Both the position numbers and the translations under genes were made by a program. A stretch of DNA of 64,000 nt from assembly GCA_963709505.1 (NCBI GenBank), contig CAVPXC010000033.1:9289-73288 (forward strand), written 5' to 3'. The notes under the pieces are model-generated. The model saw nothing but the letters and a program-made list of their open reading frames with translations. It searched no databases and was not told the origin of the DNA. This document shows, in pieces, positions 4,145 through 62,974 of the stretch (the stretch's first letter is position 1; every line of letters begins with the position of its first letter). Source of the stretch: an uncultured Chloroflexia bacterium. GTDB taxonomy: Bacteria > Chloroflexota > Anaerolineae > JAAEKA01.

Positions 4145-4247
4145 CAATTGTGAATTGTGAATTGTCAATTGACAATTGCTAATTACTCGGAAGCCTCCGG
4201 ATCCGCCATTAACCATTGACAATTGACAATTCACAATTCACAATTAC
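4145..4247. repeat. Inverted pair of heptamer arrays (GTGAATT / AATTCAC family)
   Basis: The left arm (aattgtgaattgtgaattgtcaattgacaattg) and right arm (caattgacaattgacaattcacaattcacaatt) are reverse complements around a small CGGA/TCCG hairpin. Confidence 0.9.
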
Positions 4248-4295
4248 CTCCGTCATTCGTTGTCGCATTCGTTGTGATATTCCTCAGGAGCATTC

Positions 4296-5261
4296 ATGGC
4301 CCTCACAAACAAGTCGAAGCGCTATCCCGTACCAGTGGATGCAGTCGCGGCCGAAATCACCGCATCGACGCCGGCGATCCAGGAAAAGCCCCAGGCGTCG
4401 GTCTTCAAGACCCTGATGGTGCTGTTCAAGGCGCGCGTGGTCAGCCTGCTGTTGATTGCGGCCCTGGGTGGCGCGTTTATCGGCGCAGGCAGTTGGCCCG
4501 GCTGGAACGTGCTGGCGCTGACCCTGTTCAGCGGCTGGCTGGCGGCGTCGGGCGCGTCGGCTCTCAACCAATATATCGAGCGCAAATCCGACGGCACGAT
4601 GGTCCGCACCCGCCATCGCCCGCTGGTGGACGGTACGATCCCGAACCCGAAATGGGTGCCGTGGGTCGGCATCAGCATGATTGCGGCTGCCGTGTTGTGG
4701 ACGTGGACCTTCAACCGCTGGCTCGCAATCTGGCTGGCAGCGGGCGCGTTCATCTACGTCGTGGTCTACACGATCTGGCTCAAGCCGCGCACGCCGCTGA
4801 ACATCGTCATCGGCGGCTTCGCGGGAAGCGCGGCTGTGCTCAGCGGTGCGGCAGCGGCCGGCCATTGGAACGCCCCCGGCGCGCTGGTGCTGGCCTTGTT
4901 GCTCTTCCTGTGGACGCCCACCCATTTCTGGAGCCTGGCGATCGTCTATCGCAACGACTACGCACGCAGCAGCACCCCCATGCTGCCGGTGATGGTCAGC
5001 CCCCGAAAGGCGGCCTTTTGGGTCCTCCTACACACTGCGGCGACAGGCTTTGCGGCTTTGATGCTGGCCTTCGACCCTGCGCTCGGCCTGATCTACCTGA
5101 TTCCGGTGGCCCTGGCGACGCTGGATATGATCATCCGCAACCTACGGCTGTTGCGCACGCCCACCGCCAAGAACGCCCGCTCGTTGTTCATCGCCTCCAA
5201 CATGTATCTGGCGATCGTGTTGGTGATGTTGTGTATCGACGTGGTGATCACATCGTTCTAG
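4296..5261 (+). CDS. ctaB: Protoheme IX farnesyltransferase (heme O synthase)
   Basis: UbiA-type polytopic protein with NQYIERKSD, MVRTRHRP and TPTHFWSLA motifs. Confidence 0.9.
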   Translation: MALTNKSKRYPVPVDAVAAEITASTPAIQEKPQASVFKTLMVLFKARVVSLLLIAALGGAFIGAGSWPGWNVLALTLFSGWLAASGASALNQYIERKSDGTMVRTRHRPLVDGTIPNPKWVPWVGISMIAAAVLWTWTFNRWLAIWLAAGAFIYVVVYTIWLKPRTPLNIVIGGFAGSAAVLSGAAAAGHWNAPGALVLALLLFLWTPTHFWSLAIVYRNDYARSSTPMLPVMVSPRKAAFWVLLHTAATGFAALMLAFDPALGLIYLIPVALATLDMIIRNLRLLRTPTAKNARSLFIASNMYLAIVLVMLCIDVVITSF

Positions 5262-5343
5262 AGATTGGACCTTTCTTCGGAGAAAGGTCCAATCTGGTTT
5301 TGAAACGCGAGATCGGACCTTTCTCGGAAGAAAGGTCCGATCT
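5262..5343. repeat. Two tandem GGACC-family hairpins between convergent ctaB and a bactofilin gene
   Basis: 5262-5295 and 5310-5343 each form a perfect 15-bp stem with a TCGG or CGGA loop. They are probably a bidirectional terminator. Confidence 0.85.
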
Positions 5344-5361
5344 TTTGGCTCGATCATGGAA

Positions 5362-5829
5362 TCAATCCGGCTCTTCCGGCTCCCCATCATCAGGAGATTG
5401 AGGCTCGACGGCTGGCAGGTAGGACCGCCAATCTTCGACGGTTGCCGGGGCCGCACGTGGCGGTTCGACTCTCGTCCCGTCGGCCTTCGTCATGTGGAAC
5501 TCGCCGTTGTAGAAGCCGCCTTCTTGCACGATCAACCGGCTGGCCGTTACCGTGGCCTCTACCTGGCCTGTGGGTGTGATCTTGAAGATGTCCTGACAGG
5601 TAACCTCGCCTTCCAGCTCGCCGGCGACGGTAACATTGCTGGCAGTTACCTTAGCCTTGACACGGGCGCCTTGCTCCACAATCAGCGTTCCCTGGCAATG
5701 GATCTCGCCTTCGGCTTGTCCTTCTACTCTCAGATTCTGTTCGGTTTTGTAGAGACCGTCGAAGTGGGAGTCGCGGTCCACTAAACTCTCGCTGTTGGTG
5801 CGTTCACCTGCGGGTATTGTCGTCGCCAT
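5362..5829 (-). CDS. Bactofilin (polymer-forming cytoskeletal protein)
   Basis: Repetitive beta-helix pattern (G.L.V.....V.G.V.A..V.V.G...G.V) with an acidic, proline-rich tail. Confidence 0.8.
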   Translation of the reverse strand: MATTIPAGERTNSESLVDRDSHFDGLYKTEQNLRVEGQAEGEIHCQGTLIVEQGARVKAKVTASNVTVAGELEGEVTCQDIFKITPTGQVEATVTASRLIVQEGGFYNGEFHMTKADGTRVEPPRAAPATVEDWRSYLPAVEPQSPDDGEPEEPD

Positions 5830-20860: not shown

Positions 20861-20993
20861 CGCTGAATGATGAGTGATGAATGCGGAATGCGGAATGCGG
20901 AATTTGGCCGCTACTTAGAATTCCACCATTCTGCACTCCGCACTCTGCACTCCGATCACTCTGCACTCCGCATTCATCATTCATAATTCAGCA
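20861..20993. repeat. Inverted pair of heptamer arrays (GAATGCG/GATGAGT family)
   Basis: The left arm gaatgatgagtgatgaatgcggaatgcggaatgcgg is mirrored by ...ccgcattcatcattcataattc. Confidence 0.85.
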
Positions 20994-27519: not shown

Positions 27520-27625
27520 CAAATCATGGGTCATGGGCCCATTTGGAAGACACCCTTGTCGCCCACCCGGGGAACTCAAGGCCCCATTTGTCATCCAACC
27601 GAACGCACGGAAAAGGAGAAGCAAG

Positions 27626-29292
27626 ATGAGAGTACCGAGAGTGTTCAATAGCAAGACGGCCGCGCTGCTGGTCGCCGTCTCGATGATCAGTTTTTTGGCG
27701 GCCTGCTCGCTACCCTTGCCTGGCTCGAAAAAACAGGCAGTAACCGAGACGCCGGCAGCGGCAGCGCTGGCGCCGGCCCAGCCCGTCAACGAGCCAGCGC
27801 CCAGCGGTCCCACCGCCAGCTTCGGCGGCGTGAGCTTCGCACTCGATCCGGCCATTGCTGCCTCAGCTAGTGGTGCGACCATGCCTGACACCAGCGACCC
27901 CAGCGCGCCGCCAGAGATCGACAAAGGACCGGCGCGGATCGAATTCGGCTTTGACGGCTACACCGGCCCAACTAACACGATCCCGGCCCTTGTCTACGTC
28001 TACAACCTCGTAGATTTGGCAGGCAAGCCAGAGGAGCCGATGGCAAATAGCCTGGCAACTCTGCTCCAAGAGCGGCCTGATCTGGCCGGTCAGCAGCAGC
28101 TGCCCTTCCTGCCCACTGTCAACGCGGGCCAGGGGCTGCACGTACGTGAAGCCTACCGCGATTTCGCCAATGGCTCCGGCATCGAAACCATCACCATGTA
28201 TGCCCAGGAAGCATCGCCGATCACCGCTGACCGGCTCTGGTACACCTTTCAGGGCTTGACAAGCGATGGACTGAGTTATGTAGCGGCCGTCTTCCCGTTG
28301 AGCACCGATCTCTTCCCTGTTGAGATTCCTGCCGACTTCAACTACGACGAATGGTTCGCCGAGTACGACAAGTACATGGCCGACGCCAAGAAAGCTCTGG
28401 CAGACGCGCCGGCCGACCGGTTCACCCCTGCGCTTGACAAGCTCGGCGCGCTGGTGCAGTCGATCACCGTGCCGCCTGGCCTTTCGATTGTCGCGCCGGC
28501 GGCGGCCAAACCGGCCTCGGCTGGCTTCTCTGGAACGTTCACCGCGACCTTGCCGGCCGCCGACACCCCCGGCCGCGCGATGACAATGACGCTCAACCCG
28601 GATGGCACTGCATCCATGAACACCGACTACATGAACGGCCAGCCGCCGATCTTCGAGACCGGCACCTGGCAGGACAATGGCGATGGTACGGTCACAACCA
28701 GCTTCACCCAGGTGGGCGAGAACGTGCTGGCCACGCCGGACGTCGTCACGTTCGCCCAGGAGGACGGAGCGCTGGTGGCCGTGACGTATGATCCGGAGGC
28801 CTATGGCTCACAGGGCTTCACGTTGCAAAAGAGCGGCGAGGCAGTTGAAGTGCACCTGCGCCCACCGAACTGGTCACTTCCACTGAACCGATCACTCCCG
28901 CCGAACCGGCTGCGCCAGCTGTTTCGGCTGTTCCAGGTGCGCCAGCTGAGATCACCGGGATCGCAACCTGGGAACTCCAGGATATCCGCCGCTCGAGCGG
29001 TGCGACAATTCCGGTCGTCAACTCCGCCAAGTACACGTTGCAGCTAGGTCCCGACGGCTCCGTCGCGATCGTGGCCGACTGCAATACGGGTAAGGGTACC
29101 TACGAGATCGAGGGCAACGACATCACCTTCCAGCTAGGCTACACCAAGATGATGTGTCCTTCTGGCTCGCTTTTCAACCAATTCGCCAAGTATCTCGAGT
29201 ATGCTGACAGCTTCACGGTGGAAAACGGCAGCCTGGTGCTATCCTATGGCAACGGCGCCGGTACGATGACCTTCGCGCCGGCCGGCCAGTAG
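27626..29292 (+). pseudogene. Lipoprotein with a C-terminal META (HslJ-like) domain, apparent -1 frameshift
   Basis: RBS AAAGGAG. Lipobox LAAC. After ...FTLQKSGEAV the protein continues in the frame of 29038 as APAPTELVTSTEP...ITGIATWELQDIRR...ADCNTGKGTYEIEGNDITF. Length is 3n+2. The shift is at about 28848. Confidence 0.6.
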
Positions 29293-30194: not shown

Positions 30195-30358
30195 ACGGTG
30201 AACGAGTGAACGGTGAACGGTGAACGGTGAACGGTGAACGGTGAACGGTGAACGGTGAACGGTGAACGGTGAACAGTGAACGGTGAACAGTGAACGGTGA
30301 ACAGTAGAAGTAGTAGCCTATACTGTTTACTGTTTACTGTTTACTGTTTACTGTTCAC
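30183..30358. repeat. About 17 GTGAACR heptamers followed by about 5 inverted copies (CTGTTYA) between convergent queF and the rhodanese gene
   Basis: Read directly from the sequence. Both convergent CDS ends lie inside the arms. Confidence 0.95.
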
Positions 30359-30994
30359 CACCGGCAAGCCTGCCTGCTCCCAGGCCTGAAGACCGCCTAG
30401 GATTGCCTTGACGTCGGTATACCCCTGATCCATCAGGAATTGCGCCGCACGGGCGCTTGATTCTTCGGCCGGTCAGGTGCAGTAGGTGAGGATCTCGGCG
30501 TTCTTGGGAAGCTCATGCCGGCCGGCCTCCAGCTCGCTAAGCGGGATCGACGCCGCTCCCTCGATGTGGGCCGCCTGGTAGTATTCCACACCGCGCACAT
30601 CGACAACCACGACCTGGCCGGAATCCAGCCGCGCCTTGGCGTCGGCCGGGCTGATCCTGGGCACGTCAGGATAGGGAACGTCCTGCTGCGAGGCTGCCGG
30701 CGACTGGTTGGCGGGCACAAGGGTCGTCACCGGCTCTTGACGATTGAACAGCAGCGCGGCCAATAAGCCGATTATCAACACGGCCCCGCCAAGGGTGAGC
30801 CAAAGTCTTCGGCTGCCGCCACCACGAGGCTGGCTTTTAGCCTGCTGCGTCTGCCCAGCGATGGACGGGACGCCCTTCGGCCGGGCTGTCGCTACAGCCG
30901 CCCCGCAGGCGGTGCAAAAACTGGCGTCCGGCTTGAGCTGCGCGCCGCACTTCGTGCAGAACTGCGTTGGGCCGGGGGATGGGGAGTCGGTCAT
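30341..30994 (-). CDS. Zinc-ribbon / TM / rhodanese-domain protein with an in-frame UGA (30475-30473); candidate selenoprotein or nonsense pseudogene
   Basis: Start MTDSPSP at 30994 after GGAG. FCTKCG..FCTACG, then a TM, then the rhodanese domain. The frame reads ...ILTYCT-TGA-PAEESSARAAQFLMDQGYTDVKAILGGLQAWEQAGLPVVNSKQ-TAA with no other stop. Confidence 0.6.
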
Positions 30995-31233
30995 GTCGAG
31001 TAATCTCCGATTTTTTCGATAGGATGGGGAGCATCGGCATTTGCCACAGGGATGCGCCAGAACCCGCAATTCGACGGTCAGGAAAAGCGCTTTCAAGGCG
31101 CTTTCGGCCAACCACTAGCCGGGGCCGAAATTCCTGCTATCATGGCAAGTGCGCCGGCCCTGCACTGGCAGGCTAGCCGTCGAATTCTGACATGATAGCG
31201 GTAGAAGCGCAAATCTGCCAAGGAGGATCATCC

Positions 31234-32743
31234 ATGAAACGGTTTTATCTGATCGCATTCCTATCGGTTGCCGTTCTGCTCGCAGCCGGGTGCGCCCAGG
31301 TCGCGCAGCCTGATCAGGCGAGCGCCGGCCAGGCCGTAGCCCAAGAAGCAGCCGCCACTGCTACCCCCAGTCAACTGACTATCGTCAAGGCGGATGTAAT
31401 GGACATGCCGGCCGGCCAACATGTGATGACGCATACGATGGTTATGACTCATACCATGACGATGGCTAATGGCACGGCGATGCCAATGACACACACAATG
31501 ATCATGACCAACACCATGCCGATGACCGACGACAAGGCAATGCCGGCCGATCACGCCCTGCACCATCCGGATATGGCCGCGGGTGCGCCGATGACCATGA
31601 CCATGCCGATGACGCACACCATGCCGATGACCGACAGCATGGCAATGCCGGCCGATCACGCTATGCACCATCCGGGGATGGCTTCGGGTACGCCGATGAC
31701 GATGACTATGCCGATGACGCACACCATGCCCATGATGCCAATGACAGGCACCATGCCCATGATGCCGATGATGCCTGCGATGCCAACGTCTGACAACCAG
31801 AACATGGACTCCATGCAAATGGGTCAGATGATGGACATGATGGGCCAGATGATGCAGATGATGGGCCAAATGCACATGAAGATGGGCGCGGGTGGCATGG
31901 ACATGACAGCCAGTATGCCAATGACCGGCACTATGCCCATGATGCCGATGACCGGCACCATGCCCATGATGGGCGGCCAGGGCACGCAGTCCATACAGAT
32001 GGGCCAGATGATGGACATGATGGGCCAAATGATGCAGATGATGGGCCAGATGCACATGAAGATGGGTATGGGCACGATGGCTCCGGATACGGCCAGCCAA
32101 GGCTCCGGCATGTGCAAGATGATGGGCGGCAAGGGCTGCGACATGATGAAGCAGGCAGCCGCCGGCCAAGGCTCAAGCATGTGCAAGATGATGGGCGGCA
32201 AGGGCTGCGCTATGATGAAGCAAGCAGCCGCTACCGGCCAAGATTCCGGCATGTGTAAGATGATGGGCGGTAAAGGCTGCGCTATGATGGCCGCCATGCC
32301 GATGACCCCTACCATGCCGATGACGCCTTCGATGCCCATGACAGGGACGATGCCAAGCGCGGCGGCTCAACCGGCTGCGGCGAGTGGCTATGCGCCTCAG
32401 ACGGCCGAGGCCGGCGCGGTAACGGTTACCCTCACGCCCCGCAACCTGGCCGATCCCGCCGCCCAAACCCTCGACTTCGACGTAGCCCTGAACACCCATT
32501 CCGTTCGACCTGAGCGGCGACCTGGCCAAGCTCGCCACACTACGGGCAGGCAGCAACCAGGTTGCTGCGAGCACCTGGACTGCCCCGGCAAGTGGGGGCC
32601 ATCATGTTGCAGGTTTGCTCAGTTTCCCCGCTGTTGACGCAAAAGGTCAGCCGCTGTTGGAAGGGGCCAACACGGTCGTAGTGAGCATCCGCAACCTGGC
32701 GGGCGTGCCGCTCCGCACCTTCACCTGGATGTTGGGTCAATGA
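31234..32743 (+). pseudogene. Extremely Met/His/Cys-rich lipoprotein (putative Cu(I) binder) with an apparent +1 frameshift before its C-terminal domain
   Basis: RBS AGGAGG. Lipobox LAAGC. MPMTHTMPMTD runs, GQMMDMMGQMMQMMGQMHMKMG twice, MCKMMGGKGC[DA]MM three times. After LNTHSV the protein continues in the next frame as DLSGDLAKLATLRAG...GGHHVAGLLSF...TWMLGQ, and the stop overlaps the MCO ATG. The shift is at about 32504. Confidence 0.65.
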
Positions 32744-33801
32744 GACAGTCAACAGCAAAAGCAGTTGGAGCGCTGCTGGCCGGCGCGCTCTTGCTGGTAG
32801 CATGCAGCCAGAGGACGGCGCAGCAACTGCCGGCGGCGGCGCCGTCCCCTACGCCCAGCAGTCTCAGCGGACCAAAGCCCTCCTCCGGCATGGCCCACAT
32901 GATGGCCTCACTGCCAGACGAGAACGTTCCCGCCGCTACGGTCAACGAGGGCAACCAGCCTCTAACCAGCCGCGACGAAAACGGGGTTAAGGTCTTTGAG
33001 CTGACCGCCAAACCGGTTCGCTGGAACTTCGGCGAAGGCATCGAACAGGTGGCCTGGACCTACAACGGCATGGTTCCGGGGCCGCTGATTCGGGTCGTGG
33101 AAGGCGACAACGTGCGCTTCGTCGTCAAAAACGAATTGCCTGAGCCAACGACTATTCACTGGCACGGCATCGAGCTACCGAACAGCATGGATGGCGTGCC
33201 CGGCATGACCCAGGAGGCGATCCAGCCCGGCGAAACTTTTACCTACGAGTTCGTGGCCAAGCCGGCCGGCACCTTCTGGTACCACAGCCACGTCGACAGC
33301 GACGTCCAAATCGGAGTTGGCCTGCACGGTGCCTTTATCATCGACCCCAAGACACCCGATGCCGATCCGCCGGACGTGGACGAGGTGGTGATGCTCAATG
33401 AATGGCGCTTCGTCGACGGCAAGACCTACGCCTCGATGCCGATGTCGGGCATGGACCCCAACTACTTCACCATCAACGGCAAGATCTTCCCGGCCACAAA
33501 GACCGTCCATGCCAAGGTGGGTGACCGCGTGCGGTTGCGCTTCATCGCCGCCGGCCAGTTCGTGCACCCGATGCACCTGCACGGCTTTCCCTTCAAGATC
33601 GTCGCCACCGACGGGCATCCTGTACCCGAGGCGTCACAACTGACCAAGGACACCGTGCTGGTTGCGCCCGGTGAACGCTACGACGTCGAGTTCGTCGCCA
33701 CTGAGCCGGGCATGTGGATGATCCACTGCCACATCACGCATCACACCACCAACGACGGCGAGGAGCCGGGTGGGTTGATGATGGTGGTCAATGTCGAATG
33801 A
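32740..33801 (+). CDS. Small (two-domain-size) multicopper oxidase
   Basis: Copper-ligand blocks HWHG, WYHSH, HPMHLHG and HCHITHH..M. 353 aa with a lipoprotein-like leader. Confidence 0.85.
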   Translation: MRQSTAKAVGALLAGALLLVACSQRTAQQLPAAAPSPTPSSLSGPKPSSGMAHMMASLPDENVPAATVNEGNQPLTSRDENGVKVFELTAKPVRWNFGEGIEQVAWTYNGMVPGPLIRVVEGDNVRFVVKNELPEPTTIHWHGIELPNSMDGVPGMTQEAIQPGETFTYEFVAKPAGTFWYHSHVDSDVQIGVGLHGAFIIDPKTPDADPPDVDEVVMLNEWRFVDGKTYASMPMSGMDPNYFTINGKIFPATKTVHAKVGDRVRLRFIAAGQFVHPMHLHGFPFKIVATDGHPVPEASQLTKDTVLVAPGERYDVEFVATEPGMWMIHCHITHHTTNDGEEPGGLMMVVNVE

Positions 33802-33843
33802 TGAGTGCGGAATGCGGAATGATGAATGGCGGAAGGCGGAAGT
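33796..33843. repeat. Heptamer array (GAATGMG / GGCGGAA units)
   Basis: gaatgatgagtgcggaatgcggaatgatgaatggcggaaggcggaag. The MCO stop codon lies inside it. Confidence 0.8.
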
Positions 33844-33885
33844 CAGAGTGAGTTTCGCCGTCTTAGAGAAAGGATATCTTCAGTG

Positions 33886-34296
33886 ATGATGAAGCGATGT
33901 GTTTTCGCCCTGGCTGTTCTCCTTGTTGTGGCGGTAGTAGGCGCGTGTGCCGCGCCGGTTGCAGCCCCGGCACCTGCAGCACCTGCGGCCAGTGGCCCGC
34001 CTCAGGTCACCCTGACCACCAACCCTAACCCGGCTGCCGCCGCCGGCGAGACCGAGCTGGTGGTCGAGGTCAAAGACTCCGCCGGCAAGCCGCTCAGCGG
34101 CGCCAAGGTGCTGGTGACGGCTGACATGGCCGCCCACAGCATGGGTGCCATGCAGGGCGAGGCTACCGATCAGGGCAACGGCCGCTACGCCACCAAGGTA
34201 CCCTTTGGCATGGGCGGCGACTGGAAGATAACTATCGAAGTGCGCCAGGGCGACACAGTCCTGGCGACCCAAGATTTCGTCGTTCCCGTTCAGTAG
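33886..34296 (+). CDS. YtkA-like domain lipoprotein
   Basis: Lipobox VGAC. DMAAHSMGAM motif. Paralogue of 2258..2686. Confidence 0.6.
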   Translation: MMKRCVFALAVLLVVAVVGACAAPVAAPAPAAPAASGPPQVTLTTNPNPAAAAGETELVVEVKDSAGKPLSGAKVLVTADMAAHSMGAMQGEATDQGNGRYATKVPFGMGGDWKITIEVRQGDTVLATQDFVVPVQ

Positions 34297-34459
34297 GCAG
34301 CGTACCCTGCGACAGCATCACCCGCCAGGTCGGCCCCAATCGTTCGATCTGTCTGAAACCGGACGTAGGGGCGGGTGCAAGACCCGCCCTCAGTGGATGC
34401 ATGGTTCGCCAAAGGGGCGGGTGCAAGACCTATCCCCACATCGAGTTTGGAGGTAAATC

Positions 34460-34991
34460 GTGACCAAGAAGAAGTCTCAGAACAAACCTTCGACCGCAAA
34501 ACAACCGTCTCCATCGCCCCAGCGCGCTCGATGGCCATATGTGGTCTTGGCAATTGTCCTGGTCGTGGCTGCGGCCGCGGCTATCCTCCTGCTGCAATCG
34601 GCCAAGCAGCCTGCCGCTGGCGCGTTGACTGGCACCAGCGCGCCGGCCGGCGCCGGCCGCCCTCAGTTGGTCGTCGACCAGGAGCAGATCGACTTCGGCT
34701 CCGTGCCGGTCAACAAGATGGTCAAGGCCAGCTTCAAGCTAACCAACGCCGGCGACACACCACTCACGCTCTCGGTCCCCCCGGTAGCCCAAGTCGTCGA
34801 GGGCTGCTGACCGCCCAGAATTGTCGTCGGTTCGACGACCTTAAAGCCGGGCCAGCAGACCGATCTCAGTATGGAATTCACCATGCATGCAGGCATGGAA
34901 GGGGAGCATGATTTTCGAGTTCGCGTTGAAGTCAAACGATCCAGCCAACCCGGAACAGGAGCTGAAGGTACTCTCGAATTGGATTCAGTAG
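34460..34991 (+). pseudogene. DUF1573-like membrane-anchored protein with an in-frame UGA (34808-34810) and an apparent +1 frameshift (about 34938)
   Basis: GTG start after GGAGG. The frame reads ...VAQVVEGC-TGA-PPRIVVGSTTLKPGQQTDLSMEFTMHAGMEGEHDFRVRVEVK, then shifts to NDPANPEQELKVLSNWIQ-TAG. The stop sits just before the RBS of the next gene. Confidence 0.55.
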
Positions 34992-35015: not shown

Positions 35016-35276
35016 ATGTGGTGGAATCATGGAGCTGGAATGGGATGGATGGTCGGCGGCGGTTTGATGATGTTGCTGTTCTGGGGAGGATTGATCTTCC
35101 TGTTCGGCTTGGGCGTCTGGGCGTTTAGCCGCTCCGGGCAGCAGCGCTCCGGCGATTCCAGCCAGACATCTGTTGCGAAACAGGATCGCGCCTTGGAGAT
35201 CTTAAAGGAACGCTATGCACGAGGCGAGATCACGAAGACCGAATACGAAGAGATACGCAACGACATTCGAACCTGA
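35016..35276 (+). CDS. SHOCT-domain membrane protein
   Basis: AGGAGG RBS. Gly/Met-rich TM and a C-terminal LEILKERYARGEITKTEYEEIRNDI SHOCT motif. Confidence 0.7.
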   Translation: MWWNHGAGMGWMVGGGLMMLLFWGGLIFLFGLGVWAFSRSGQQRSGDSSQTSVAKQDRALEILKERYARGEITKTEYEEIRNDIRT

Positions 35277-35353
35277 TGGGCACGAAGCTCCAACGCGCAT
35301 GCAGGCGTAGGCATTCCCAAGGACAACAGGGACCAAGAAGCGAGGACATGACT

Positions 35354-35767
35354 ATGAGACGGATTAGCTTGTTAGCAATCGTGATGGCGCTTGTAATCGG
35401 CGCTTGCAGCGCCCCTGGCCCCGGCCAGGTCGACCAGTCGCCGGCGCAGCCTGCCCAGGTCACCAAAATCGACGCCGACCAGCTAGCCACGATGCTGCAA
35501 AACAAGGACTTTACTTTCGTAAACGTCCACATTCCCTATGCAGGCGAGATCGCCAACACGGACCTACAGATCCCCTACAACGAGATGCCTGCCAACCTGG
35601 ACAAGCTACCCAACAAGGATGCCAAGATCGTGCTCTATTGCCGCAGCGGCCGCATGTCGGACGAGGCCAGCCAGGAGTTGGTCAAGCTCGGATACACGAA
35701 CGTCTATGACGTGGTAGGCGGTATGCAGGCCTGGACGGCTTCGGGACGTGAGGTAATCCAAAAGTAA
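35354..35767 (+). CDS. Rhodanese-domain lipoprotein
   Basis: Lipobox IGAC. Active-site loop YCRSGRMS. GGMQAW. Confidence 0.8.
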   Translation: MRRISLLAIVMALVIGACSAPGPGQVDQSPAQPAQVTKIDADQLATMLQNKDFTFVNVHIPYAGEIANTDLQIPYNEMPANLDKLPNKDAKIVLYCRSGRMSDEASQELVKLGYTNVYDVVGGMQAWTASGREVIQK

Positions 35768-36175: not shown

Positions 36176-36204
36176 TTGCCGTGCAGGTGTTTTTCGGATA
36201 CAAT
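36176..36204 (+). promoter_or_regulatory. Candidate promoter placing the transcription start at or next to the kinase ATG (possibly a leaderless mRNA)
   Basis: TTGCCG, a 17-nt spacer, then TACAAT ending 7 nt before ATG 36212. Confidence 0.3.
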
Positions 36205-36211
36205 GCCCGGC

Positions 36212-37657
36212 ATGTCCTTTGCCAAGCGTTTCCGTGGTTTGCTCGAAAACCCGCATTTCTGGGTGGTCGTTGCCGGATTGGCAATCACCACTTGGCTGCA
36301 TTACACCACTAGCCCGCTGCTGTTCGAGCAGCACACCGTCTACCGCTACCTCTACTTCCTGCCCGTCGTCTACGCCGCCCTGCGTTTTGGGCTGTGGGGG
36401 GGATTGCTCGCCGGCCTGACAGCCAGCTTGCTTTTTGCACCGCACATCTGGCTCAAATTCGGCCACTTCCCCGAGGAGAGCCTCAACGATCTTTTTGTCG
36501 CCGTAGTTCTGACCTTGGTGGGCATTTTGACTGGTGCGCTAACTGATGCGGAGCGCCGCCAGCGGCGGAAGCAAGAAACTGCCAGCGCTCAACTGGCCCA
36601 GTCTTTGGCGCAACTGGAGCACCGCACGGCCGCGCTGGAAGAGATGCAACGCTATATCAACAGCGTGCTAGCCTCGCTGAGCTGCGGCGTGATTACTGTC
36701 GACGCAGCGGGCCGCGTCACGACCGATAATCCGATGGCCCGCACCCTCCTAGGCAGCAATTTGATCGGCCAGCCGCTGCCCGCTTCCCTCGTTAACCGGT
36801 CAAAATCAGGCTTTGATGGCTACCGCCAGATGCGGTTGGCCGGCCGGCCGGTAGGAGTGCACGCCGGTCCGCTGACCAGCGGCGATGGCAGGCACATGGG
36901 CACCGTGCTCGTGCTGGACGACCTGACCGAAGTCAAGGCGCTTGAGGAGCAGGTGCGGCGGGCAGAGCGGCTCAGCGCGCTCGGTACGCTTGCGGGCGGC
37001 GTGGCGCACGAAGTGCGCAACCCCGTGGGCATCATCCGCGCCAGCGCGCAGCTCATGGGCTCGCTTCCAAGCGTCGCCGAGGATGTCGGCAGCCACGAGT
37101 ATTTGTCGGTGATTACGCAGGAAGCCGATCGCATCGACCGATTGGTCGAAGATCTGCTCGGCTACGCCCGCGCCGGCGAGCTGAGCCTGGCACCGGTGGA
37201 CATGGAAGAGTTGGTCCGCAGCACCGCCGCGCGACTGGCCTCGCTGACCGAGCAGGCGGACGTCGATCTGGTGGTTGAGGTTGAGCCTCGGCTGCCTCGG
37301 GTTGAAGGCGATGCCGGCAAGCTGGAGCAAGTGCTGTTGAACCTGGGCCTAAATGCCATCGCCGCGATCCAGGCGGCCTATCCACGCCCAGCGGCCGGCG
37401 GCCGGCTGGTACTGTCCGCACAGCGCGCGCCGGGCGGCCTGCACTGCGTCGTGCGCGACAACGGCCAGGGCATGCCCGACGACGTGCGCGTCCACATCTT
37501 CGACCCCTTTTTCACCACCCGCGACGACGGCACCGGCCTGGGCCTGGCCATCGTCCAACGCATCGTCGCCGACCACGGCGGCACAATCGAGGTCGCCAGC
37601 GAGCCTGGCAAGGGCGCTACGTTTACCATCTGGCTGCCTGCGATGAACGAGGAATGA
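36212..37657 (+). CDS. Membrane sensor histidine kinase (PAS, HisKA, HATPase)
   Basis: 4 TM, H-box [11 protein letters not shown]-box LNLGLNAI, G-boxes DNGQGM and GTGLGL. The last codons and the stop lie inside the GATGAAC array. Confidence 0.85.
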
Positions 37658-37757
37658 TGAACGATGAACGATGAATGCGGGCGGACGAAGTTTCCGCATT
37701 CATCGTTCATCGTTCATCATTCCTCGTTCATCATTCCGCATTCATCGTTCATCGCTG
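37642..37757. repeat. Inverted pair of heptamer arrays (GATGAAC / GTTCATC), about 39-bp perfect arms
   Basis: gatgaacgaggaatgatgaacgatgaacgatgaatgcgg is mirrored by ccgcattcatcgttcatcgttcatcattcctcgttcatc. Confidence 0.95.
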
Positions 37758-37825: not shown

Positions 37826-38621
37826 GTGCCCAACTCACCCGTTCAGCTAGCCATCGCCGAATGGCAAGACAAGCAGATCACCGGCACCGAATTGATGCGC
37901 CGGTTGGTGTCCTTCGATAAGTGGATGGTTCCGGTGTCTGAAGCCGCAGCGGCCGAAATGGTTAGCACGAGGAGCAGCCTCGCGCTTGATGTACAGCCAG
38001 GACGGCGAAGGCGTCTCCCGTCTGTACCTCTTCTCCGACGGCGAGGCCTACGATGCGTTCCGCGCGTCCGTGGGGCAGGATGCATCCGAGCAGCACTTTC
38101 TATCCACGACCGGGACATGGATCTTTCAACTCCCCCTGGACCCACTCGACTTCATCGAGATCGATCCGGCGACGCCCTGGCAGATTGGTTATCACAAAGA
38201 GCAGTTCCCCCGCTTGCGAGCCATGGCTGCCGCCGTCGAGGTCGAACTGGCGCTGGCAGCCTTGCGCGCCGGCACGGCAGAGCCCGGCTCACTCACGAAG
38301 GTGCGGCAATACGAGCACTACATTCTAGCCGTCACCAGCCGGGATGGCGGCCACACCCTGGCCCTCGCGCCGGACGATCGCGACCGCACGCTAGCCGCCA
38401 TTTTCACCTCCGACGATAGCTTCCAAGCCTTCCTCCCCGAAGGCGGAGCGCTACTTTCGGACGGGCAGCTCCTGCGCGTTGCGCTGGCCGGCCCACAGCT
38501 CTTCGAACAACTGTCCCGGATGTCGCTGGACGGCGTCGTCTTCAACTGCAGCGGCCCCGGCCGCCCCATCGCCTTTGCCCAGGCATTTCTCACTGTCATC
38601 CTGGAGGCCAAATCGGAATGA
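37826..38621 (+). pseudogene. SseB-like protein (two SseB_N-like halves) with an apparent +1 frameshift
   Basis: GTG 37826 follows AAGGAG. ...KWMVPVSEAAAAEM (frame 37784) joins ...LMYSQDGEGVSRLYLFSDGEAYDAF...AAIFTSDDSFQAF (frame 37986). The family call is weak. Confidence 0.45.
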
Positions 38622-38622
38622 T

Positions 38623-38691
38623 GAATGATGAGCGATGAATGATGATTTCGAAATCATCATTCATCGCTCATCATTCATCATTCATCGTTCA
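38623..38691. repeat. Near-perfect palindrome built from GAATGAT/GATGAGC heptamers
   Basis: ggaatgatgaatgatgagcgatgaatgatgatttc | gaaatcatcattcatcgctcatcattcatcattc. Confidence 0.95.
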
Positions 38692-38694
38692 AAC

Positions 38695-39969
38695 ATGACC
38701 ACAGTCCTAATCGTCGACGACGAAGCCAACATGCGCTGGGTGCTCCAGCGTGCGCTCGAACAGGCCGGTTACCAGGCCCTGGCCGCCGGCCGCGGGGAGG
38801 AGGCGCTCAACCTGGCTGCGCGCAACCGGATCGATCTGGCGCTGCTTGATCTGAAGATGCCCGGCATGGATGGCCTGGCCGTGCTACGCGAGCTCCACCT
38901 GCGCCAGCCCGATCTGCCGGTGATTTTGTTGACCGCCTACGCCACCGTGCCGACCGCGGTCGAGGCCATGCGCCTGGGCGCGCTGGACTACCTGCGCAAG
39001 CCGTTCGACGTGGAAGAGGTGCTCTTCAAGATCGCCAACGCTTTCCAGCGGCGGGCCGTGCAGATCGAGCGGGACGCGCTCAGCGCCCGGCTGCGGCAGG
39101 CAGGCAACTCGGCGGCAGGCCCAGGGCTGTTTAGCTTTGCACGCTTTGTCGGCGCGAGCCCGGCCCTGACCGAACCCCTCACGCACGCACGTGCCGCGGC
39201 GCACAACGACTACCCTGTGCTGATCACGGGCGAGGAAGGCACGGGCAAAACCCTGCTGGCGCAGCTGATCCACGGCCAGAGCCGCCGGCCCGACGCGCCG
39301 CTGGTGACCACGGACTGCGGCAGCCTGAGCGCCGGCGCGCTGCGGCAGGAGCTCCTGGCGGAGAGCGGCAGATGGCGACAGGCGCTTGGCGGCACCTTAT
39401 TATTGCGCCGCATCGGCCGGCTCCCCGACGAGCTGGCAGAGCCGCTAGCGACGCATTTGGCCGGCCTGCTGCGTTCGCCGGAGCGGCCGGCGGGCTTGCG
39501 AGTCATCGCCACCGCTGCCGACGAAATTACGCCCTCGTTGTTGGCGCTGTTGGACGGCATCCGAATCGCGCTTCCGCCGCTCCGCGAGCGCGATGGCGAC
39601 TTGTTGTTGTTGGCCCAGCACTTGGCGCCGGGCACAAAACTGGGCGGGCTTGCGCTCAGCGCACTTCTGGCCTATCCTTGGCCGGGAAACGTCTCCGAGT
39701 TGGCAGGCGTTCTGGCTCACGCCAAGGCCCTGGCCGGCGAGGGGACCATCGAAGTCGAGCATCTGCCGGCTCGCATCACCATGGCGTCGTCAGATGAGAC
39801 AGCCACCTTCCGCCTGCCGCCGGGCGGCATCGACCTGGACCAGGTAGAGCGCGAGCTGATTCGCCAGGCGCTGGATAGGGCTCAGGGCAACAAGAGCCAG
39901 GCCGCGCGCCTGCTTGGCCTGACACGGCACACGTTGCTGTATCGGTTGGAGAAGCACGGGTTCGAATAG
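38695..39969 (+). CDS. NtrC-family response regulator with a degenerate AAA+ module (REC, AAA-like, Fis-type HTH)
   Basis: REC: LIVDDE...DLKMPGMDG...KPF. Walker A reads GEEGTGKT. The Walker B position reads LLLRRIG instead of the usual FLDEIG, and no GAFTGA loop is seen. C-terminal NKSQAARLLGLTRHTLLYRL. Confidence 0.8.
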   Translation: MTTVLIVDDEANMRWVLQRALEQAGYQALAAGRGEEALNLAARNRIDLALLDLKMPGMDGLAVLRELHLRQPDLPVILLTAYATVPTAVEAMRLGALDYLRKPFDVEEVLFKIANAFQRRAVQIERDALSARLRQAGNSAAGPGLFSFARFVGASPALTEPLTHARAAAHNDYPVLITGEEGTGKTLLAQLIHGQSRRPDAPLVTTDCGSLSAGALRQELLAESGRWRQALGGTLLLRRIGRLPDELAEPLATHLAGLLRSPERPAGLRVIATAADEITPSLLALLDGIRIALPPLRERDGDLLLLAQHLAPGTKLGGLALSALLAYPWPGNVSELAGVLAHAKALAGEGTIEVEHLPARITMASSDETATFRLPPGGIDLDQVERELIRQALDRAQGNKSQAARLLGLTRHTLLYRLEKHGFE

Positions 39970-40110: not shown

Positions 40111-40140
40111 ATTGACTTCGCATCCGCCTTGGTGTTATGC
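40111..40140 (+). promoter_or_regulatory. Weak candidate promoter upstream of the PCFCGC/CuA cluster
   Basis: TTGACT, an 18-nt spacer, then TATGCT. Confidence 0.25.
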
Positions 40141-40198
40141 TTCACAATGTCTGGTCGAGCCATTTACGCAAGCTCTGCCTAACGACACTGGGCGGCGC

Positions 40199-40262
40199 GA
40201 TTGCAGATTGCAAGTGGCAAGTTCAGCACCTGCAACCTGCAACTTGCCACCTGCAACTTGGC
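40199..40262. repeat. Inverted heptamer arrays (TTGCAGR / CTGCAAC)
   Basis: gattgcagattgcaagtggcaagttcag | cacctgcaacctgcaacttgccacctgcaacttgg. Confidence 0.8.
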
Positions 40263-40280
40263 CACCCTCACGGAGGTTGT

Positions 40281-40838
40281 ATGCAGCGAAACCCAAGGCG
40301 AATGCTGATCCTGGGCATTCTTATCAGCTTGTTGATAGCAGCTTGCGGTGGCAGCGCCGCCCAACCGACGAGCGACACGAAGATGGCGCCGGAGTCGCAG
40401 CTTCCCGCTGAGATGAAGGACCAGCCGGCCAGAGTGATAGAGGCGTACCGTTTCGCGATCGCCAACCCCGATCTACTCAAGCAGATCCCCTGTTTCTGCG
40501 GCTGCGTGGCCGAGCAACACGAGTCGAACTACAACTGCTACGTCGCAAAAGATGGCGGCCCCGGCAGCGTTCTGGATTTCGACAACCATGCCACGGGCTG
40601 CGGCATTTGTGTTGACATCACTCAAGATGTGATGAAAATGCAACAAGAAGGCAAGAGCGTCGACCAGATGCGCGCGGTCATCAACCAACGCTACGGTAAT
40701 TTCGGCCCATCGACCGACGACGCCGGCAAGTCGTCCAGCACCGGCCAATTCATGCCGATCGGCGACACCACCCAGTTGATGAGCAGCCTACCCGAACACC
40801 ACTGCGACGAGGAGACAGGCCTCTGCGACTCTCAATGA
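40281..40838 (+). CDS. PCYCGC-motif lipoprotein (motif here PCFCGC)
   Basis: GGAGG RBS. Lipobox IAAC. IPCFCGCVAEQHESNYNCY, GCGICVD, and a C-terminal HHCDEETGLCD. Confidence 0.7.
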   Translation: MQRNPRRMLILGILISLLIAACGGSAAQPTSDTKMAPESQLPAEMKDQPARVIEAYRFAIANPDLLKQIPCFCGCVAEQHESNYNCYVAKDGGPGSVLDFDNHATGCGICVDITQDVMKMQQEGKSVDQMRAVINQRYGNFGPSTDDAGKSSSTGQFMPIGDTTQLMSSLPEHHCDEETGLCDSQ

Positions 40839-41281
40839 TCGCCGCAATGCTGACCGGGCTGCTAGCGCTGGCCGCGTTGATTGCGCCGCTGCCCAGCGCA
40901 GCCAGCGCTGCCGTTGAACGCAGCATCGTGCTCGACGCCCGCATGTTCGCCTACACGCCCGGCCGGCTGCGAGTCAACCAGGGCGACCGGGTAACGCTCA
41001 CACTGCAATCTTCGGATGTCGTCCATGGCCTCTATATCGACGGCTACGGCGTGGACATCCAGGCCGAGCCCGGCCAGCCGGCCGAGACCACCTTCGTCGC
41101 CGACCGCCTGGGTAAGTTTAAGTTCCGCTGCTCCGTGAGCTGCGGTGCCATGCACCCCTTCATGATCGGCGAGCTGGTCGTCGGCCCAAACATCCCGTTC
41201 TGGCGCGCGGTCGCAGCGCTTTTTGTGGTAACCGTAGGCTCTTTGGTAACTGTGTCGCTGTCTCAAAGAAGTGGAGGGTAG
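40835..41281 (+). CDS. Membrane-anchored cupredoxin with a CuA-type site
   Basis: ATGA overlap with the upstream gene. VVHGLYIDG ... C-SVS-C-GAM-H-PF-M matches H...CxxxCxxxHxxM. Confidence 0.7.
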   Translation: MIAAMLTGLLALAALIAPLPSAASAAVERSIVLDARMFAYTPGRLRVNQGDRVTLTLQSSDVVHGLYIDGYGVDIQAEPGQPAETTFVADRLGKFKFRCSVSCGAMHPFMIGELVVGPNIPFWRAVAALFVVTVGSLVTVSLSQRSGG

Positions 41282-41381
41282 AGAGTGGAGAGTGTGGAAC
41301 GCCGAAGACATGCTAGAACTTCAAGTCCTCCACCCTCCACCCTCCACCCTCCACTCTCCACCCTCCACTCTCCACCCTCCC
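41272..41381. repeat. Inverted GTGGAGR / YCTCCAC heptamer arrays filling the intergenic gap
   Basis: gtggagggtagagagtggagagtgtgg ... cctccaccctccaccctccaccctccactctccaccctccactctccaccctcc. Confidence 0.9.
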
Positions 41382-42776
41382 ATGATCCCCACCGTACGAC
41401 CTGATTCCTCCTGGCGCTTTGAGCTAACAAAGATCTCGTGGGTGCGCCGCCTGCTGACGTGGCGGCCGCTGCAGTTCAGCGTGACCTTGGTCATGCTGGG
41501 GTTTTTCGTGCTGGCCATGCTCACCGGCTTCTTCGGCACGCCCGTCGGCAACCGCAACTTCAGCATCATCTTCGTCTGGATCGTGTGGTGGGCGCTGGTG
41601 ATCATCCTGCTAGTGCCAGCCCTCGGCCGCGGATGGTGCGCCATTTGCCCGATCCCGGCGCCGGGGGAATGGCTGCAACGACAGAGCTTCGTTCACCCCC
41701 GGCAGAGAAAGCTATGGACGCTGGGCAAACGTTGGCCCAACAAGCTAAAGAACATCTGGATCCAAAACTTCGCCTTTCTCGGCGTAGCCCTGTTTAGCGC
41801 CATCATCCTAACCCGGCCCGTTGCCACAGGCGCGATATTGCTGCTGTTCATCGTGCTGGCCTTCGCTCTGAGCATACTTTTTGAGCGGCGCACATTTTGC
41901 CGCTACGTCTGCCCGGTAGGCGGATTTATCGGGCTCTACTCTATGACCGCGCCGATCGAGCTGCGCGTCAAAGACGTTGAGGTGTGCCGGACCCATGACA
42001 CCAAGGACTGCTACCTGGGCAACGAGCAGGGTTTCGGCTGCCCGTGGCTGGTCTTTCCGGGCAGCCTAACCCGCAATACCTACTGCGGCTTGTGCACGGA
42101 GTGTCTCAAGAGCTGCACCATGAACAATGTGGCGATCAACCTACGGACGCCCGGCGCCGACTTGTTCGTCGCCAAGGGCCGCCGGCTGGACGAGGCGTAT
42201 AAGGCCTTTATCATGCTCGCCTGTGCGATCGCCTACTCGGTCGTGCTCCTCGGTCCGTGGGGTCTGCTCAAGGAGGCGGCGAATTTCGGCAGCGTGCCGG
42301 CCTGGCTGCTGTACGCCGCCGGCTTCCTGGCACTCAACCTGCTGATCGTACCTGGCCTGTTCTTTGGCGCCACCAGCTTGAGCCGCGCCCTGGGCGGCCT
42401 GAAGCAGATCCGGCCCAAGGCCGTGTTCATCGACTACGCCTACACCCTGGTGCCGCTGGGCCTGGCCGCCTGGATCGCCTTCAGCCTGAGCTTTGTGTTG
42501 GTCAATATCAGCTACGCTCTGCCGGTGATCGGCGACCCGTTCGGCTGGGGCTGGAATCTGCTTGGCCTACGGGATGTGCCCTGGACGCCGGTGCTTCCAG
42601 CGCTTGTGCCTTACCTGCAAGTGCCTGTGCTGTTGGGCGGCCTGGCCTTCAGCATCAACGCCGCCTGGCGCATTGCCCAAGAGCAGACAAGAACCCACGC
42701 GCTGCGGGCGATATTGCCGGTGGTGGCGTTTCTGATGGCGGTCACGTTGGTGCTTTTCGCGCTGTACCTGGGCTAG
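41382..42776 (+). CDS. NapH/NosH/CcoG-like polytopic 4Fe-4S protein
   Basis: Start MIPTVRP lies after the repeat. GWCAICP and FCRYVCPVGG (CxxCP), CGLCTECLKSC (CxxCxxCxxxC), and about 10 TM. Confidence 0.7.
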   Translation: MIPTVRPDSSWRFELTKISWVRRLLTWRPLQFSVTLVMLGFFVLAMLTGFFGTPVGNRNFSIIFVWIVWWALVIILLVPALGRGWCAICPIPAPGEWLQRQSFVHPRQRKLWTLGKRWPNKLKNIWIQNFAFLGVALFSAIILTRPVATGAILLLFIVLAFALSILFERRTFCRYVCPVGGFIGLYSMTAPIELRVKDVEVCRTHDTKDCYLGNEQGFGCPWLVFPGSLTRNTYCGLCTECLKSCTMNNVAINLRTPGADLFVAKGRRLDEAYKAFIMLACAIAYSVVLLGPWGLLKEAANFGSVPAWLLYAAGFLALNLLIVPGLFFGATSLSRALGGLKQIRPKAVFIDYAYTLVPLGLAAWIAFSLSFVLVNISYALPVIGDPFGWGWNLLGLRDVPWTPVLPALVPYLQVPVLLGGLAFSINAAWRIAQEQTRTHALRAILPVVAFLMAVTLVLFALYLG

Positions 42777-42882: not shown

Positions 42883-43998
42883 ATGACCGATCAATCTTCA
42901 AATCCTTCCACCGAAAAATATCCCACGTTTCGTTCAGGCCGGGAACGTGTTGCGCTGGGACTGGTGCTGCTCGTTGTACTCGGTCTACCCCTCGCCATCT
43001 TTGGCTATCAACGGCTGCGGGCTGCCGGGCCGATGCGCACCGTCGAGATCACGGCTCGGCTGCCAACCTCCGACTTGGGAGGCTGGACGCCCGAGGTAAT
43101 CACCGTGCAAAAGGGCGAGCGGGTGCGCCTGCGTCTGACCAGCGCCAACGTCGTGCACGGCTTTGCCGTGCCCAAGCTGGGCATCGACGCCGGCTGGATC
43201 GAACCGGGCAAGGTCACCGAGGTCGAATTCGTCGCCAACCGGCCGGGCCGCTACACCACCGAGTGCACCGTCTACTGCGAGGCGGGCCACTGGCGCATGC
43301 GCGGGATCATCCAAGTGGTGGATTCCAACGATCCCCTGGCGTCGGAACAGGACAGTGACCCGCCACAGACCGACTGGGTGGCCTCGGGCATCGACGTTGA
43401 CGCCGAGCACCCCGGCGAGAATGCGCCGGAGCAGGCGCCCGATGCAGCTAACGGCGCCCGGCTTTGGCAGCAAATCAACGGGCGGACGGCTGCCGAGGTT
43501 GCGGAATCGCTCGACCTGCGCCACAGCAGCCCAAGCGACATTTTTGCGCTGCTAGCCTCGCCCGACTTGCCAGAAAGCAAAGCCATAGCTGCCTTAACGC
43601 CGGCCGAGCGCTGGGACGTCGTCGCCCATCTGTGGCGCGCGTCGACCACTCCAGAGACCCTGCAGCTCGGCGCGAAGTTGTACAAGCGTGACTGTACCGG
43701 TTGTCATGGGCCAAACGGCAAGGGTGACGGCCCGGGCGCGGCGGCAATCAAGCAGCAGAACACCCTGCAGGGCATGGCTGGCATGGGAGACATGCCGGGT
43801 ATGAACAAAGCCCCCACCGACTTCACCGACCTGACCGCGCAGGCCGGCGCCTCCGATTTACTCTACTATGGCAAGCTCGTGCGCGGCGGCATGGGCACTT
43901 CCATGCCGTATTGGGGAACGATTTACACAGAGGATGAGTTGTGGGCGGTGATCGTTCACCTACGAAGCCTGGCGTTTCAGTATCCCCCGCAGCATTAG
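42883..43998 (+). CDS. CoxB-like CuA cupredoxin fused to a class I cytochrome c
   Basis: N-terminal TM. VVHGFAV ... [13 protein letters not shown]-terminal [13 protein letters not shown] ... [11 protein letters not shown]. Confidence 0.75.
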
Positions 43999-62561: not shown

Positions 62562-62813
62562 ATGCAGATCACAATCACTGTCCCTCAAGAACCGTTCCTG
62601 GCTGAGCCGCGTGAGAGTGTATCCAGGAAAATCCGCCTTTATGCTGCGCTCGGCATGTATCGCGCCAGTGAATTGTCTATCGGCGCGGCGTGTGAACTGG
62701 CGGGTGTCGATCGATACACATTCCTCGAATTCTGTAAGCGCCAGGACGTTTCGTTGCAGACCCAAACACCCAGCGAACTAGAAACAGAATTCAAAATGAA
62801 CCTGCCTCGCTAG
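62562..62813 (+). CDS. UPF0175-family antitoxin-like protein (no cognate toxin adjacent)
   Basis: AAGGAG RBS. LYAALGMYRASELSIGAACELAGVDRYTFLEFC. Confidence 0.55.
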   Translation: MQITITVPQEPFLAEPRESVSRKIRLYAALGMYRASELSIGAACELAGVDRYTFLEFCKRQDVSLQTQTPSELETEFKMNLPR

Positions 62814-62974
62814 CCCGATCCCTCAGAGACTAAGGGGGGCAGGCCGCCACACTCGGCGACTTTTCGCGAGGCAGGAGAAGCCCGTGGGCTTTTTGTCCTG
62901 ACAGGGTCAAAAAGCTCCTCCAACTAGCCTTTTCGGGCAAGCCACCTACGAAGAGCGTGACCGATAATCCTCCA

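Follow-up and report, generated by a model that had tools for sequence, protein, structure and literature searches.

On comparative evidence, the in-frame TGA in a small gene at positions 34460–34991 (+) of the window, the whole 64,000-nt stretch of DNA analysed here, is a conserved recoded codon and not the sign of a broken gene, and selenocysteine (Sec) is the most likely residue to be inserted at it. We consider it likely that this selenoprotein gene is intact by design, with a UGA that is read through, a SECIS-like hairpin, a Cys-Sec pair and a role with copper, and that the extra T that disturbs its frame further downstream is an error. In the mechanism that we propose, the hairpin 12 nt downstream of the UGA would act as a bacterial SECIS and recruit SelB and Sec-tRNA(Sec), and the Sec placed next to Cys116 would complete a vicinal Cys-Sec pair in the motif G-C-U-P-P. 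The product would be a small protein with one N-terminal helix in the membrane and its domain outside the cytoplasm, in which, to judge from the gene neighbourhood, Cu(I) may be bound or passed on by the thiolate/selenolate pair together with a conserved Met/His loop.

The coordinates of the gene, its elements and its neighbours are collected in Table 1. Direct reading agreed with the original prediction that the ORF at 34460–34810, which has a GTG start, ends ...VAQVVEGC-TGA (TGA at 34808–34810) and that the very same frame stays open beyond the TGA, where it continues as PPRIVVGSTTLKPGQQTDLSMEFTMHAGMEGEHDFRV... Gene callers give two ORFs for this gene, one of 116 aa and one of 51 aa. When the TGA was read through, however, residues 68–171 matched both Pfam DUF1573 (PF07610; 35.5 bits, gathering cutoff 26.1) and the Pfam HYDIN/VesB Ig-like domain (PF22544; 43.1 bits, gathering cutoff 25.5), and the predicted DUF1573-type character of the protein was thereby confirmed, together with the internal position of the TGA, which both domains bridge. 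Because a single DUF1573/HYDIN-type Ig-like domain extends over residues 68–171, the TGA sits in the middle of a domain; in other words, the UGA at 34808 must be read through for one Ig-like (DUF1573/ASH-type) domain to be made. An AlphaFold model based on the family alignment gave a continuous seven-strand Ig-like sandwich across the UGA site (pLDDT 96.9), with G-C-[U]-P-P in the loop after strand 41–45 and M-H-x-G-M-x-G-x-H in another loop. In relatives, coding parts 2 and 3 of Table 1 form one single frame.

Table 1. Positions of the features of the Ig-like protein gene and of neighbouring genes in the window
Feature	Position	Strand	Basis or remark
NlpE-domain protein	27533-29047		
Zinc-ribbon/rhodanese (Sec-type) with in-frame TGA	30344-31000; TGA 30475-30473	-	...ILTYCT-U-PAEESSARAAQ..., active-site loop
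Met-rich protein	31192-32637		
Multicopper oxidase	32740-33801	+	Pfam
YtkA-like protein	33826-34296	+	Pfam
Shine-Dalgarno-like GGAGG	34449..34453	+	direct reading; GTG start 6 nt further on
Coding part 1, GTG start to Cys116	34460..34807	+	lysine-rich N-terminus, one membrane-spanning segment, first Ig-like half
Predicted single membrane anchor W25-L45, WPYVVLAIVLVVAAAAAILLL	34532..34594	+	translation; predicted topology
Extended fold with CUGCUG/CAGCAG and GCCC/GGGC lower helices enclosing the UGA	34804..34857	+	window only; MFE -24.5 kcal/mol, z -2.9
C-U-P-P codons TGC TGA CCG CCC	34805..34816	+	homologue alignment
In-frame TGA, proposed selenocysteine codon	34808..34810	+	conservation in relatives
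Coding part 2, in frame with part 1: PPRIVVGSTTLKPGQQTDLSMEFTMHAGMEGEHDFR	34811..34919	+	translation; selection and open frame in relatives
SECIS-like hairpin GUCGUCG-GUU-CGACGAC	34823..34839	+	12 nt after UGA; 7-bp stem
Met/His-rich loop motif M-E-F-T-M-H-A-G-M-E-G-x-H	34871..34909	+	alignments A1, A3
Private single-base insertion, one T of TT 34920-34921, giving an apparent +1 frameshift	34920	+	comparison with relatives
Coding part 3, in frame +1 of the window sequence: VALKSNDPANPEQELKVLSNWIQ, with TAG stop 34989-34991	34921..34991	+	
SHOCT protein	35016-35276		
Rhodanese	35276-35767		
Histidine kinase	36176-37657		
Sigma-54-type response regulator	38635-39969		
PCYCGC protein	40137-40838		PF13798, 91 bits
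Fer4_5 protein	41271-42776		
COX2/cupredoxin-cytochrome c	42883-43998		

The TGA is shared well beyond the window. Twelve relatives emerged from a word-indexed protein search, ten of them called as proteins ending exactly in ...VVEGC (an end that occurs in P0001–P0008 and P0010–P0012), and the DNA of loci L001–L007 showed GGN TGC TGA CCG CC followed by 59 open codons and a homologous stop, with TCA in place of the TGA in L004 only. Thirteen further loci from a metagenome scan, down to 41% identity, have the identical TGA arrangement, and a scan of one genome per species found 13 Chloroflexota MAGs (labelled Anaerolineae, Caldilineales, Caldilineae, ‘Chloroflexia’, Anaerolinea, and Thermoflexus), of which eight carry TGA and five TGC or TGT. 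Two further, more distant lineages (L036, L039) have TGA in their DNA, though a pipeline, using code 4, had put W there. Altogether, the GC-TGA-CCN-CC arrangement occurred in 26 other distinct metagenome or MAG sequences with 41–91% identity, including eight Chloroflexota species-representative MAGs, and the codons at the motif were GGN TGY TGA CCN CCN throughout the TGA loci, except for L039, which has TCT TCT after the TGA. In all 26 sequences, the frame after the TGA was open for 57–60 codons up to the homologous stop, whereas the other two frames were open in only 1/26 and 7/26, and none of the 26 contained a frameshift. Furthermore, in the distinct TGA sequences analysed, dN/dS was 0.18–0.19 downstream of the TGA, compared with 0.39–0.42 upstream. 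Within the 78 nt around the TGA, the window copy does not differ from L001, and no change at the TGA was seen among the best-supported differences listed for four unrelated metagenome runs (53 further differences lay outside that list).

We then compared the codon with its counterpart in homologues that lack it, using as the query of an exhaustive search the one relative without a stop (P0009). This search yielded about 45 single-domain homologues of 140–185 residues, 33–48% identical to P0009 and likewise equipped with the N-terminal anchor. Where the window has E-G-C-TGA-P-P, these distant homologues read (V)-E-G-C-C-P-P, so that the CC-P-P motif of the original prediction proved to be present. 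In an alignment of 49 homologues, G and the first C did not vary, and conservation was at least 90% for both the second C and the first P. Alignment of the CC column, which had been suggested as a check, thus placed Cys opposite the UGA, in agreement with the proposal that the UGA stands for the second residue of a vicinal Cys pair. Because the homologues have G-C-C-P-P, the TGA replaces the second Cys of this pair, which is the classic Sec/Cys pattern. Among the loci studied at the DNA level, L031–L035, L037, and L038 have TGC or TGT instead of TGA. In L037 (476–553), the codon is TGC and the hairpin is the same as in its TGA-bearing relative L036; from its sequence, we read this locus as a recent Sec-to-Cys switch. 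The locus that encodes P0009 (L004, 1215–1292) reads TCA (Ser) here, keeps an intact or compensated hairpin, and also has a break in the N-terminal frame; we treat it as an exception or an error. Judged from their sequences, L037 and L004 look like recent Sec-to-Cys and Sec-to-Ser switches, respectively, or like contig errors. The cluster closest to P0009 (P0055) ends in ...KGC, and P0095 reads GCRPP at the motif.

The perfect 7-bp hairpin that had been noticed 12 nt after the TGA (GTCGTCG-GTT-CGACGAC) was found exactly as described, and direct reading likewise placed its loop 19 nt after the TGA. In all 27 aligned sequences, the spacer between the UGA and the hairpin was 12 nt, the stem had 6–7 bp, and the 6-bp core GUCGUC/GACGAC or a compensated form of it was present; the loop was GUU, GUG, GGGCA, GGUCA, or GGGCG, with G as the first base in 27/27. 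Variant stems were GUCGUAG/CUACGAC (L036, through two synonymous changes), ACCGUCG/CGACGGU (L004), and ACCAUCG/CGAUGGU (L039), and a G-U pair occurred in L002 and L008. Compensatory double changes affected four of the seven pairs, and 96.8% of the cells in the 27 sequences were paired, a level reached in 0/500 column shuffles, while slid controls paired much worse; most of this covariation was due to three divergent sequences (L004, L036, L039). The stem also appeared frozen at the codon level, in that its two Val codons were GTC in 26/26 and 25/26 sequences, whereas the four-fold sites of the flanking invariant Gly, Pro, and Thr codons used three or four bases. The hairpin was absent from five of the seven Cys-type loci, and L034-type loci had another hairpin, a weak one with a base other than G at the start of its loop. 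As for stability, the 43-nt hairpin region alone folded no better than its shuffles (z −1.0), short hairpins alone not being significant by this measure, and a 59-nt region folded better than shuffles (z −2.9; 0/200 shuffles). The lower helices of the extended fold were rejected as a part of the element; divergent relatives do not conserve them, so their relevance is doubtful. No Rfam SECIS or tRNA-Sec family was detected in the window at the gathering threshold, or in 34700–34950 at E-values up to 10. The stronger support for the hairpin is comparative, and the spacing, the G-initial loop and the covariation in 27 sequences all speak for the originally predicted SECIS-like element at the right distance from the UGA.

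The gene as given in the window also contains a +1 frameshift. This part of the original prediction was correct, but the extra base is not an A near 34938; it is a T at 34920/34921, where the window reads GAGTTCGCG and the relatives, including L001, read GAGTCGCG. The relatives continue as ...HDFRVALKSNDPANPEQEL.VLSNW.. in one frame, and the corrected C-terminus is ...HDFRVALKSNDPANPEQELKVLSNWIQ followed by the stop, which replaces the earlier reading ...RVRVEVK with NDPAN after the break. The extra T is absent from L001 and from all other loci compared, and all four metagenome runs gave ‘left out 1’ at 34920; these runs represent related populations, as no indexed run that contains the window strain was found (best word share 0.28). 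A further single T, likewise private to the window, is inserted at 32505 (CCGT[T]CGACC, compared with CCGTCGACC in L001), where it breaks the frame of the C-terminal domain (...ALNTHSVDL...) of the Met-rich protein. Both insertions share the context GT[T]CG and are 2.4 kb apart; GTTCG was not over-represented as a mark of systematic error would be (140 observed, 157 expected). Because two private T insertions of the same kind lie within 2.4 kb and the gene is otherwise the same as L001 around the TGA, assembly error is favoured over decay, and the extra T is probably a sequencing or assembly error. An error-prone assembly had been named at the outset as one possible cause of the frameshift, and it accounts better for a T that is missing from all relatives and four metagenomes. 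If the recoded family were real and the extra T nevertheless a true mutation, the window would hold a recently inactivated allele that has lost the last two strands. The insertion does stand in the window sequence, but we regard this reading as unlikely, since the gene shows no decay elsewhere and matches L001 without a difference around the TGA, four related populations lack the insertion, and the second private T in the same context looks like a systematic assembly error.

The use of Sec is indirectly supported by a second conserved TGA, which lies 4 kb upstream in the same island, in a rhodanese that appears from its sequence to be of the CxU type. Its best NCBIfam match was NF041203, the CxU-type rhodanese-related (seleno)protein (83 bits, cutoff 115). 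The TGA of this gene is conserved in L001 and in L023, a different species, and is followed by a conserved hairpin, GCGCC-CGUGC-GGCGC. Sec-type enzymes have been reported for Chloroflexota MAGs (PMC13582414), as have Chloroflexi selenoproteins (PMC1794560). No selA, selB, or selD was found among the scanned ORFs of the 64-kb window, a small part of the genome, and ARAGORN detected no tRNA-Sec in the window and none in 17 related loci, again a small part of each genome. ARAGORN did call a tRNA of ‘undetermined’ type, whose anticodon has only the two bases ‘cg’, at 5405–5485 (+), where the ORFs at 4223–5401 (+) and 5362–5829 (−) meet; this call, which is unlike tRNA-Sec, is probably a false positive.

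A hairpin-aided recoding of the UGA could also deliver a residue other than Sec, namely Cys, through a tRNA-ReC/selC*-type tRNA together with SelB, or another amino acid. According to PMC13582414, which cites Vargas-Rodriguez 2018, such tRNAs decode UGA plus a SECIS as Cys, and bioinformatics cannot separate this from Sec insertion. The Cys in the aligned column of homologues without UGA fits such decoding, as does the lack of Sec machinery in the small genome parts covered by the window and the related loci. However, a costly UGA and hairpin maintained over more than eight species would be hard to justify when one TGA-to-TGC change would suffice; moreover, tRNA-ReC-like genes have been reported mainly from other phyla (PMC13582414), and Chloroflexota MAGs do hold Sec-type enzymes (PMC13582414, PMC1794560). 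We therefore regard this reading as improbable, and selenocysteine remains the favoured residue.

A decaying pseudogene, or a TGA that acts as a true stop behind a functional 116-residue product, with the downstream conservation being incidental or belonging to a separate peptide, is very improbable. The two lesions in the window copy and the split into two called ORFs would suit it, but the decay suspected in the original prediction is contradicted by the downstream dN/dS of 0.18 and the frame open in 26/26, and the multiply disrupted pseudogene that might have been expected in relatives was not found. In addition, the TGA lies midway through one beta-sandwich, and no conserved start codon follows it; the ATG of L002 is a T-to-M change absent from the window. 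That the organism decodes UGA as a sense codon under another genetic code (code 4 or 25) can practically be dismissed: a pipeline placed W at the codon in two relatives (P0051, P0118), but 13 of the 29 Pfam-annotated ORFs of the window have TGA as their ordinary stop, so the code is standard, the genome has 60% G+C, and the aligned residue in homologues is Cys, neither Trp nor Gly.

With the UGA read as Sec, the protein can be considered as a whole. Because its N-terminus is basic, the positive-inside rule would orient the anchor with its N-terminus in and the domain out, and the Ig-like domain is probably located outside the cytoplasm. In the Met/His-rich loop, M74, M78, H79, G81, M82, G84, and H86 were invariant in alignment A1, and G and H were nearly invariant in alignment A3; this composition suggests that the loop may be a metal ligand. 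A fold search returned generic ASH/PapD/HYDIN-like Ig domains and the DUF1573-type structure 2qsv as the nearest matches, and a profile search of PDB sequences gave HYDIN-type repeats and 2qsv alone, with no functional clue.

The neighbouring genes point, as far as their annotation goes, to extracytoplasmic copper handling. The order multicopper oxidase, YtkA-like gene, Ig-like protein gene is kept in nine loci (L001, L002, L006, L007, L010, L012, L023, L025, L026), and P1B-type ATPases adjoin homologues of the Sec type (L024, L027, L029, L030) as well as of the Cys type (L031, L034). Meanwhile, cupredoxin, Fer4_5, and PCYCGC genes adjoin other homologues of the Ig-like protein. In L007 (325–918), one ORF (P0012, 197 aa up to the TGA) joins a YtkA-like domain to the DUF1573-type Sec protein, a fusion that supports a functional link between these two neighbours. 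The PCYCGC family, which directly adjoins the closest Cys-type homologue in L038, has itself been catalogued as the (seleno)protein family OS_HP4 (PMC13188914), and the PCYCGC protein may be a functional partner of the Ig-like Sec protein. The genes of the copper island are also flanked by an interspersed intergenic element made of inverted arrays of the heptamers GAATGAT/GAACGAT (20865–20989, 33796–33828, 37652–37750, 38616–38690), with 19 matches to GAATGATGAAYG at no more than one mismatch against 0.47 expected. Elsewhere in the window, at 62796–62876 (−), there is a DUF3800-IX RNA (55.7 bits, gathering threshold 36.8), the sole Rfam family in the window.

Given this neighbourhood and the composition of the motifs, the best reading of the Ig-like protein is that of a membrane-anchored protein that would bind or transfer Cu(I) outside the cytoplasm, with the thiolate/selenolate pair as its key ligand set. 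No link between DUF1573 and a copper function was found in the literature searched. A broader picture, which we offer tentatively and hold to be somewhat less probable than its opposite, would be a Chloroflexota-wide anchored extracytoplasmic protein whose vicinal Cys-Sec pair and Met/His loop form a Cu(I) site, whose partners are multicopper oxidases, P1B ATPases, and cupredoxin/COX2-type proteins, and which toggles between Sec and Cys, leaving fossil hairpins in Cys forms such as L037. If true, envelope copper homeostasis or cuproenzyme maturation would include a step that depends on selenium. The co-occurrence of a proposed Cys-Sec pair and a Sec-type rhodanese in one copper island makes a selenium-copper link testable in a phylum with few selenoprotein studies.

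In every public record examined, the gene was either split (116 aa plus 51 aa) or translated with the wrong code, which means that a small conserved family has been systematically mis-annotated in Chloroflexota that are abundant in wastewater, sediment, and freshwater. For the scanning of genomes, the lesson is that a TGA together with a frameshift need not mean decay; the two lesions seen here have separate causes.

Several known systems resemble parts of this one. CopC, PCuAC, and CusF are extracytoplasmic Cu(I) chaperones with beta-sandwich folds. The window protein, for which no sequence or fold-search match to these three was obtained, would be comparable to them in function only, being a small beta-sandwich, anchored or exported, whose ligands would be of the Met/His and thiolate type and whose gene has multicopper oxidase, P1B ATPase and cupredoxin/COX2 genes as neighbours. 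Bacterial SECIS elements, as represented by E. coli fdhF and the bSECISearch consensus (criteria via PMC13582414), are similar in that Cys-type relatives, including those of Sec hydrogenases, sometimes keep a similar hairpin (PMC13582414); the hairpin of the window differs from them in its very short loop of 3–5 nt, in having neither a bulged U nor a conserved lower stem, and in matching no Rfam SECIS family. MbdU (NF045648), SaoL (NF040728), and form 2 of the CopZ-family 2Fe-2S protein (PMC13188914) resemble the window protein in that Cys and Sec are adjacent and that their genes are associated with heavy-metal handling; however, their folds are unrelated and the window protein matched none of their NCBIfam models, and we do not claim common ancestry.

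The nearest known counterpart is OS_HP2, a DUF1573 domain-containing protein with the motif UGC, which was first found in Olavius symbionts (PMC1976440) and is listed as a predicted selenoprotein in two reviews (PMC9312934, PMC13188914). Like the window protein, OS_HP2 (NCBIfam NF041425) is a small member of the DUF1573 fold superfamily, carries Sec beside a conserved Cys within the same loop region, and is a computational prediction. The window protein scored 25.6 bits (E 1.1e-5) against the NF041425 model, below the curated cutoff of 100 bits, and the catalogue of May 2026 held no CUPP entry and made no mention of Chloroflexota. When the window family was aligned by hhalign with one classical S-C-G-C-T DUF1573 sequence, its E-G-C-U fell on C-G-C-T; by this indirect comparison, through a single classical sequence, the Sec of the window protein lies three columns later than that of OS_HP2, and the shared Cys stands between the two positions. 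The two also differ in their hosts, which are Chloroflexota here and deltaproteobacterial symbionts there, and in the CC-PP motif and Met/His loop of the window protein. The family described here is thus a conserved, hitherto mis-annotated and probable selenoprotein subfamily that involves no new mechanism, and it would add to the DUF1573-like fold a Sec form whose position is unlike that of the catalogued UGC form.
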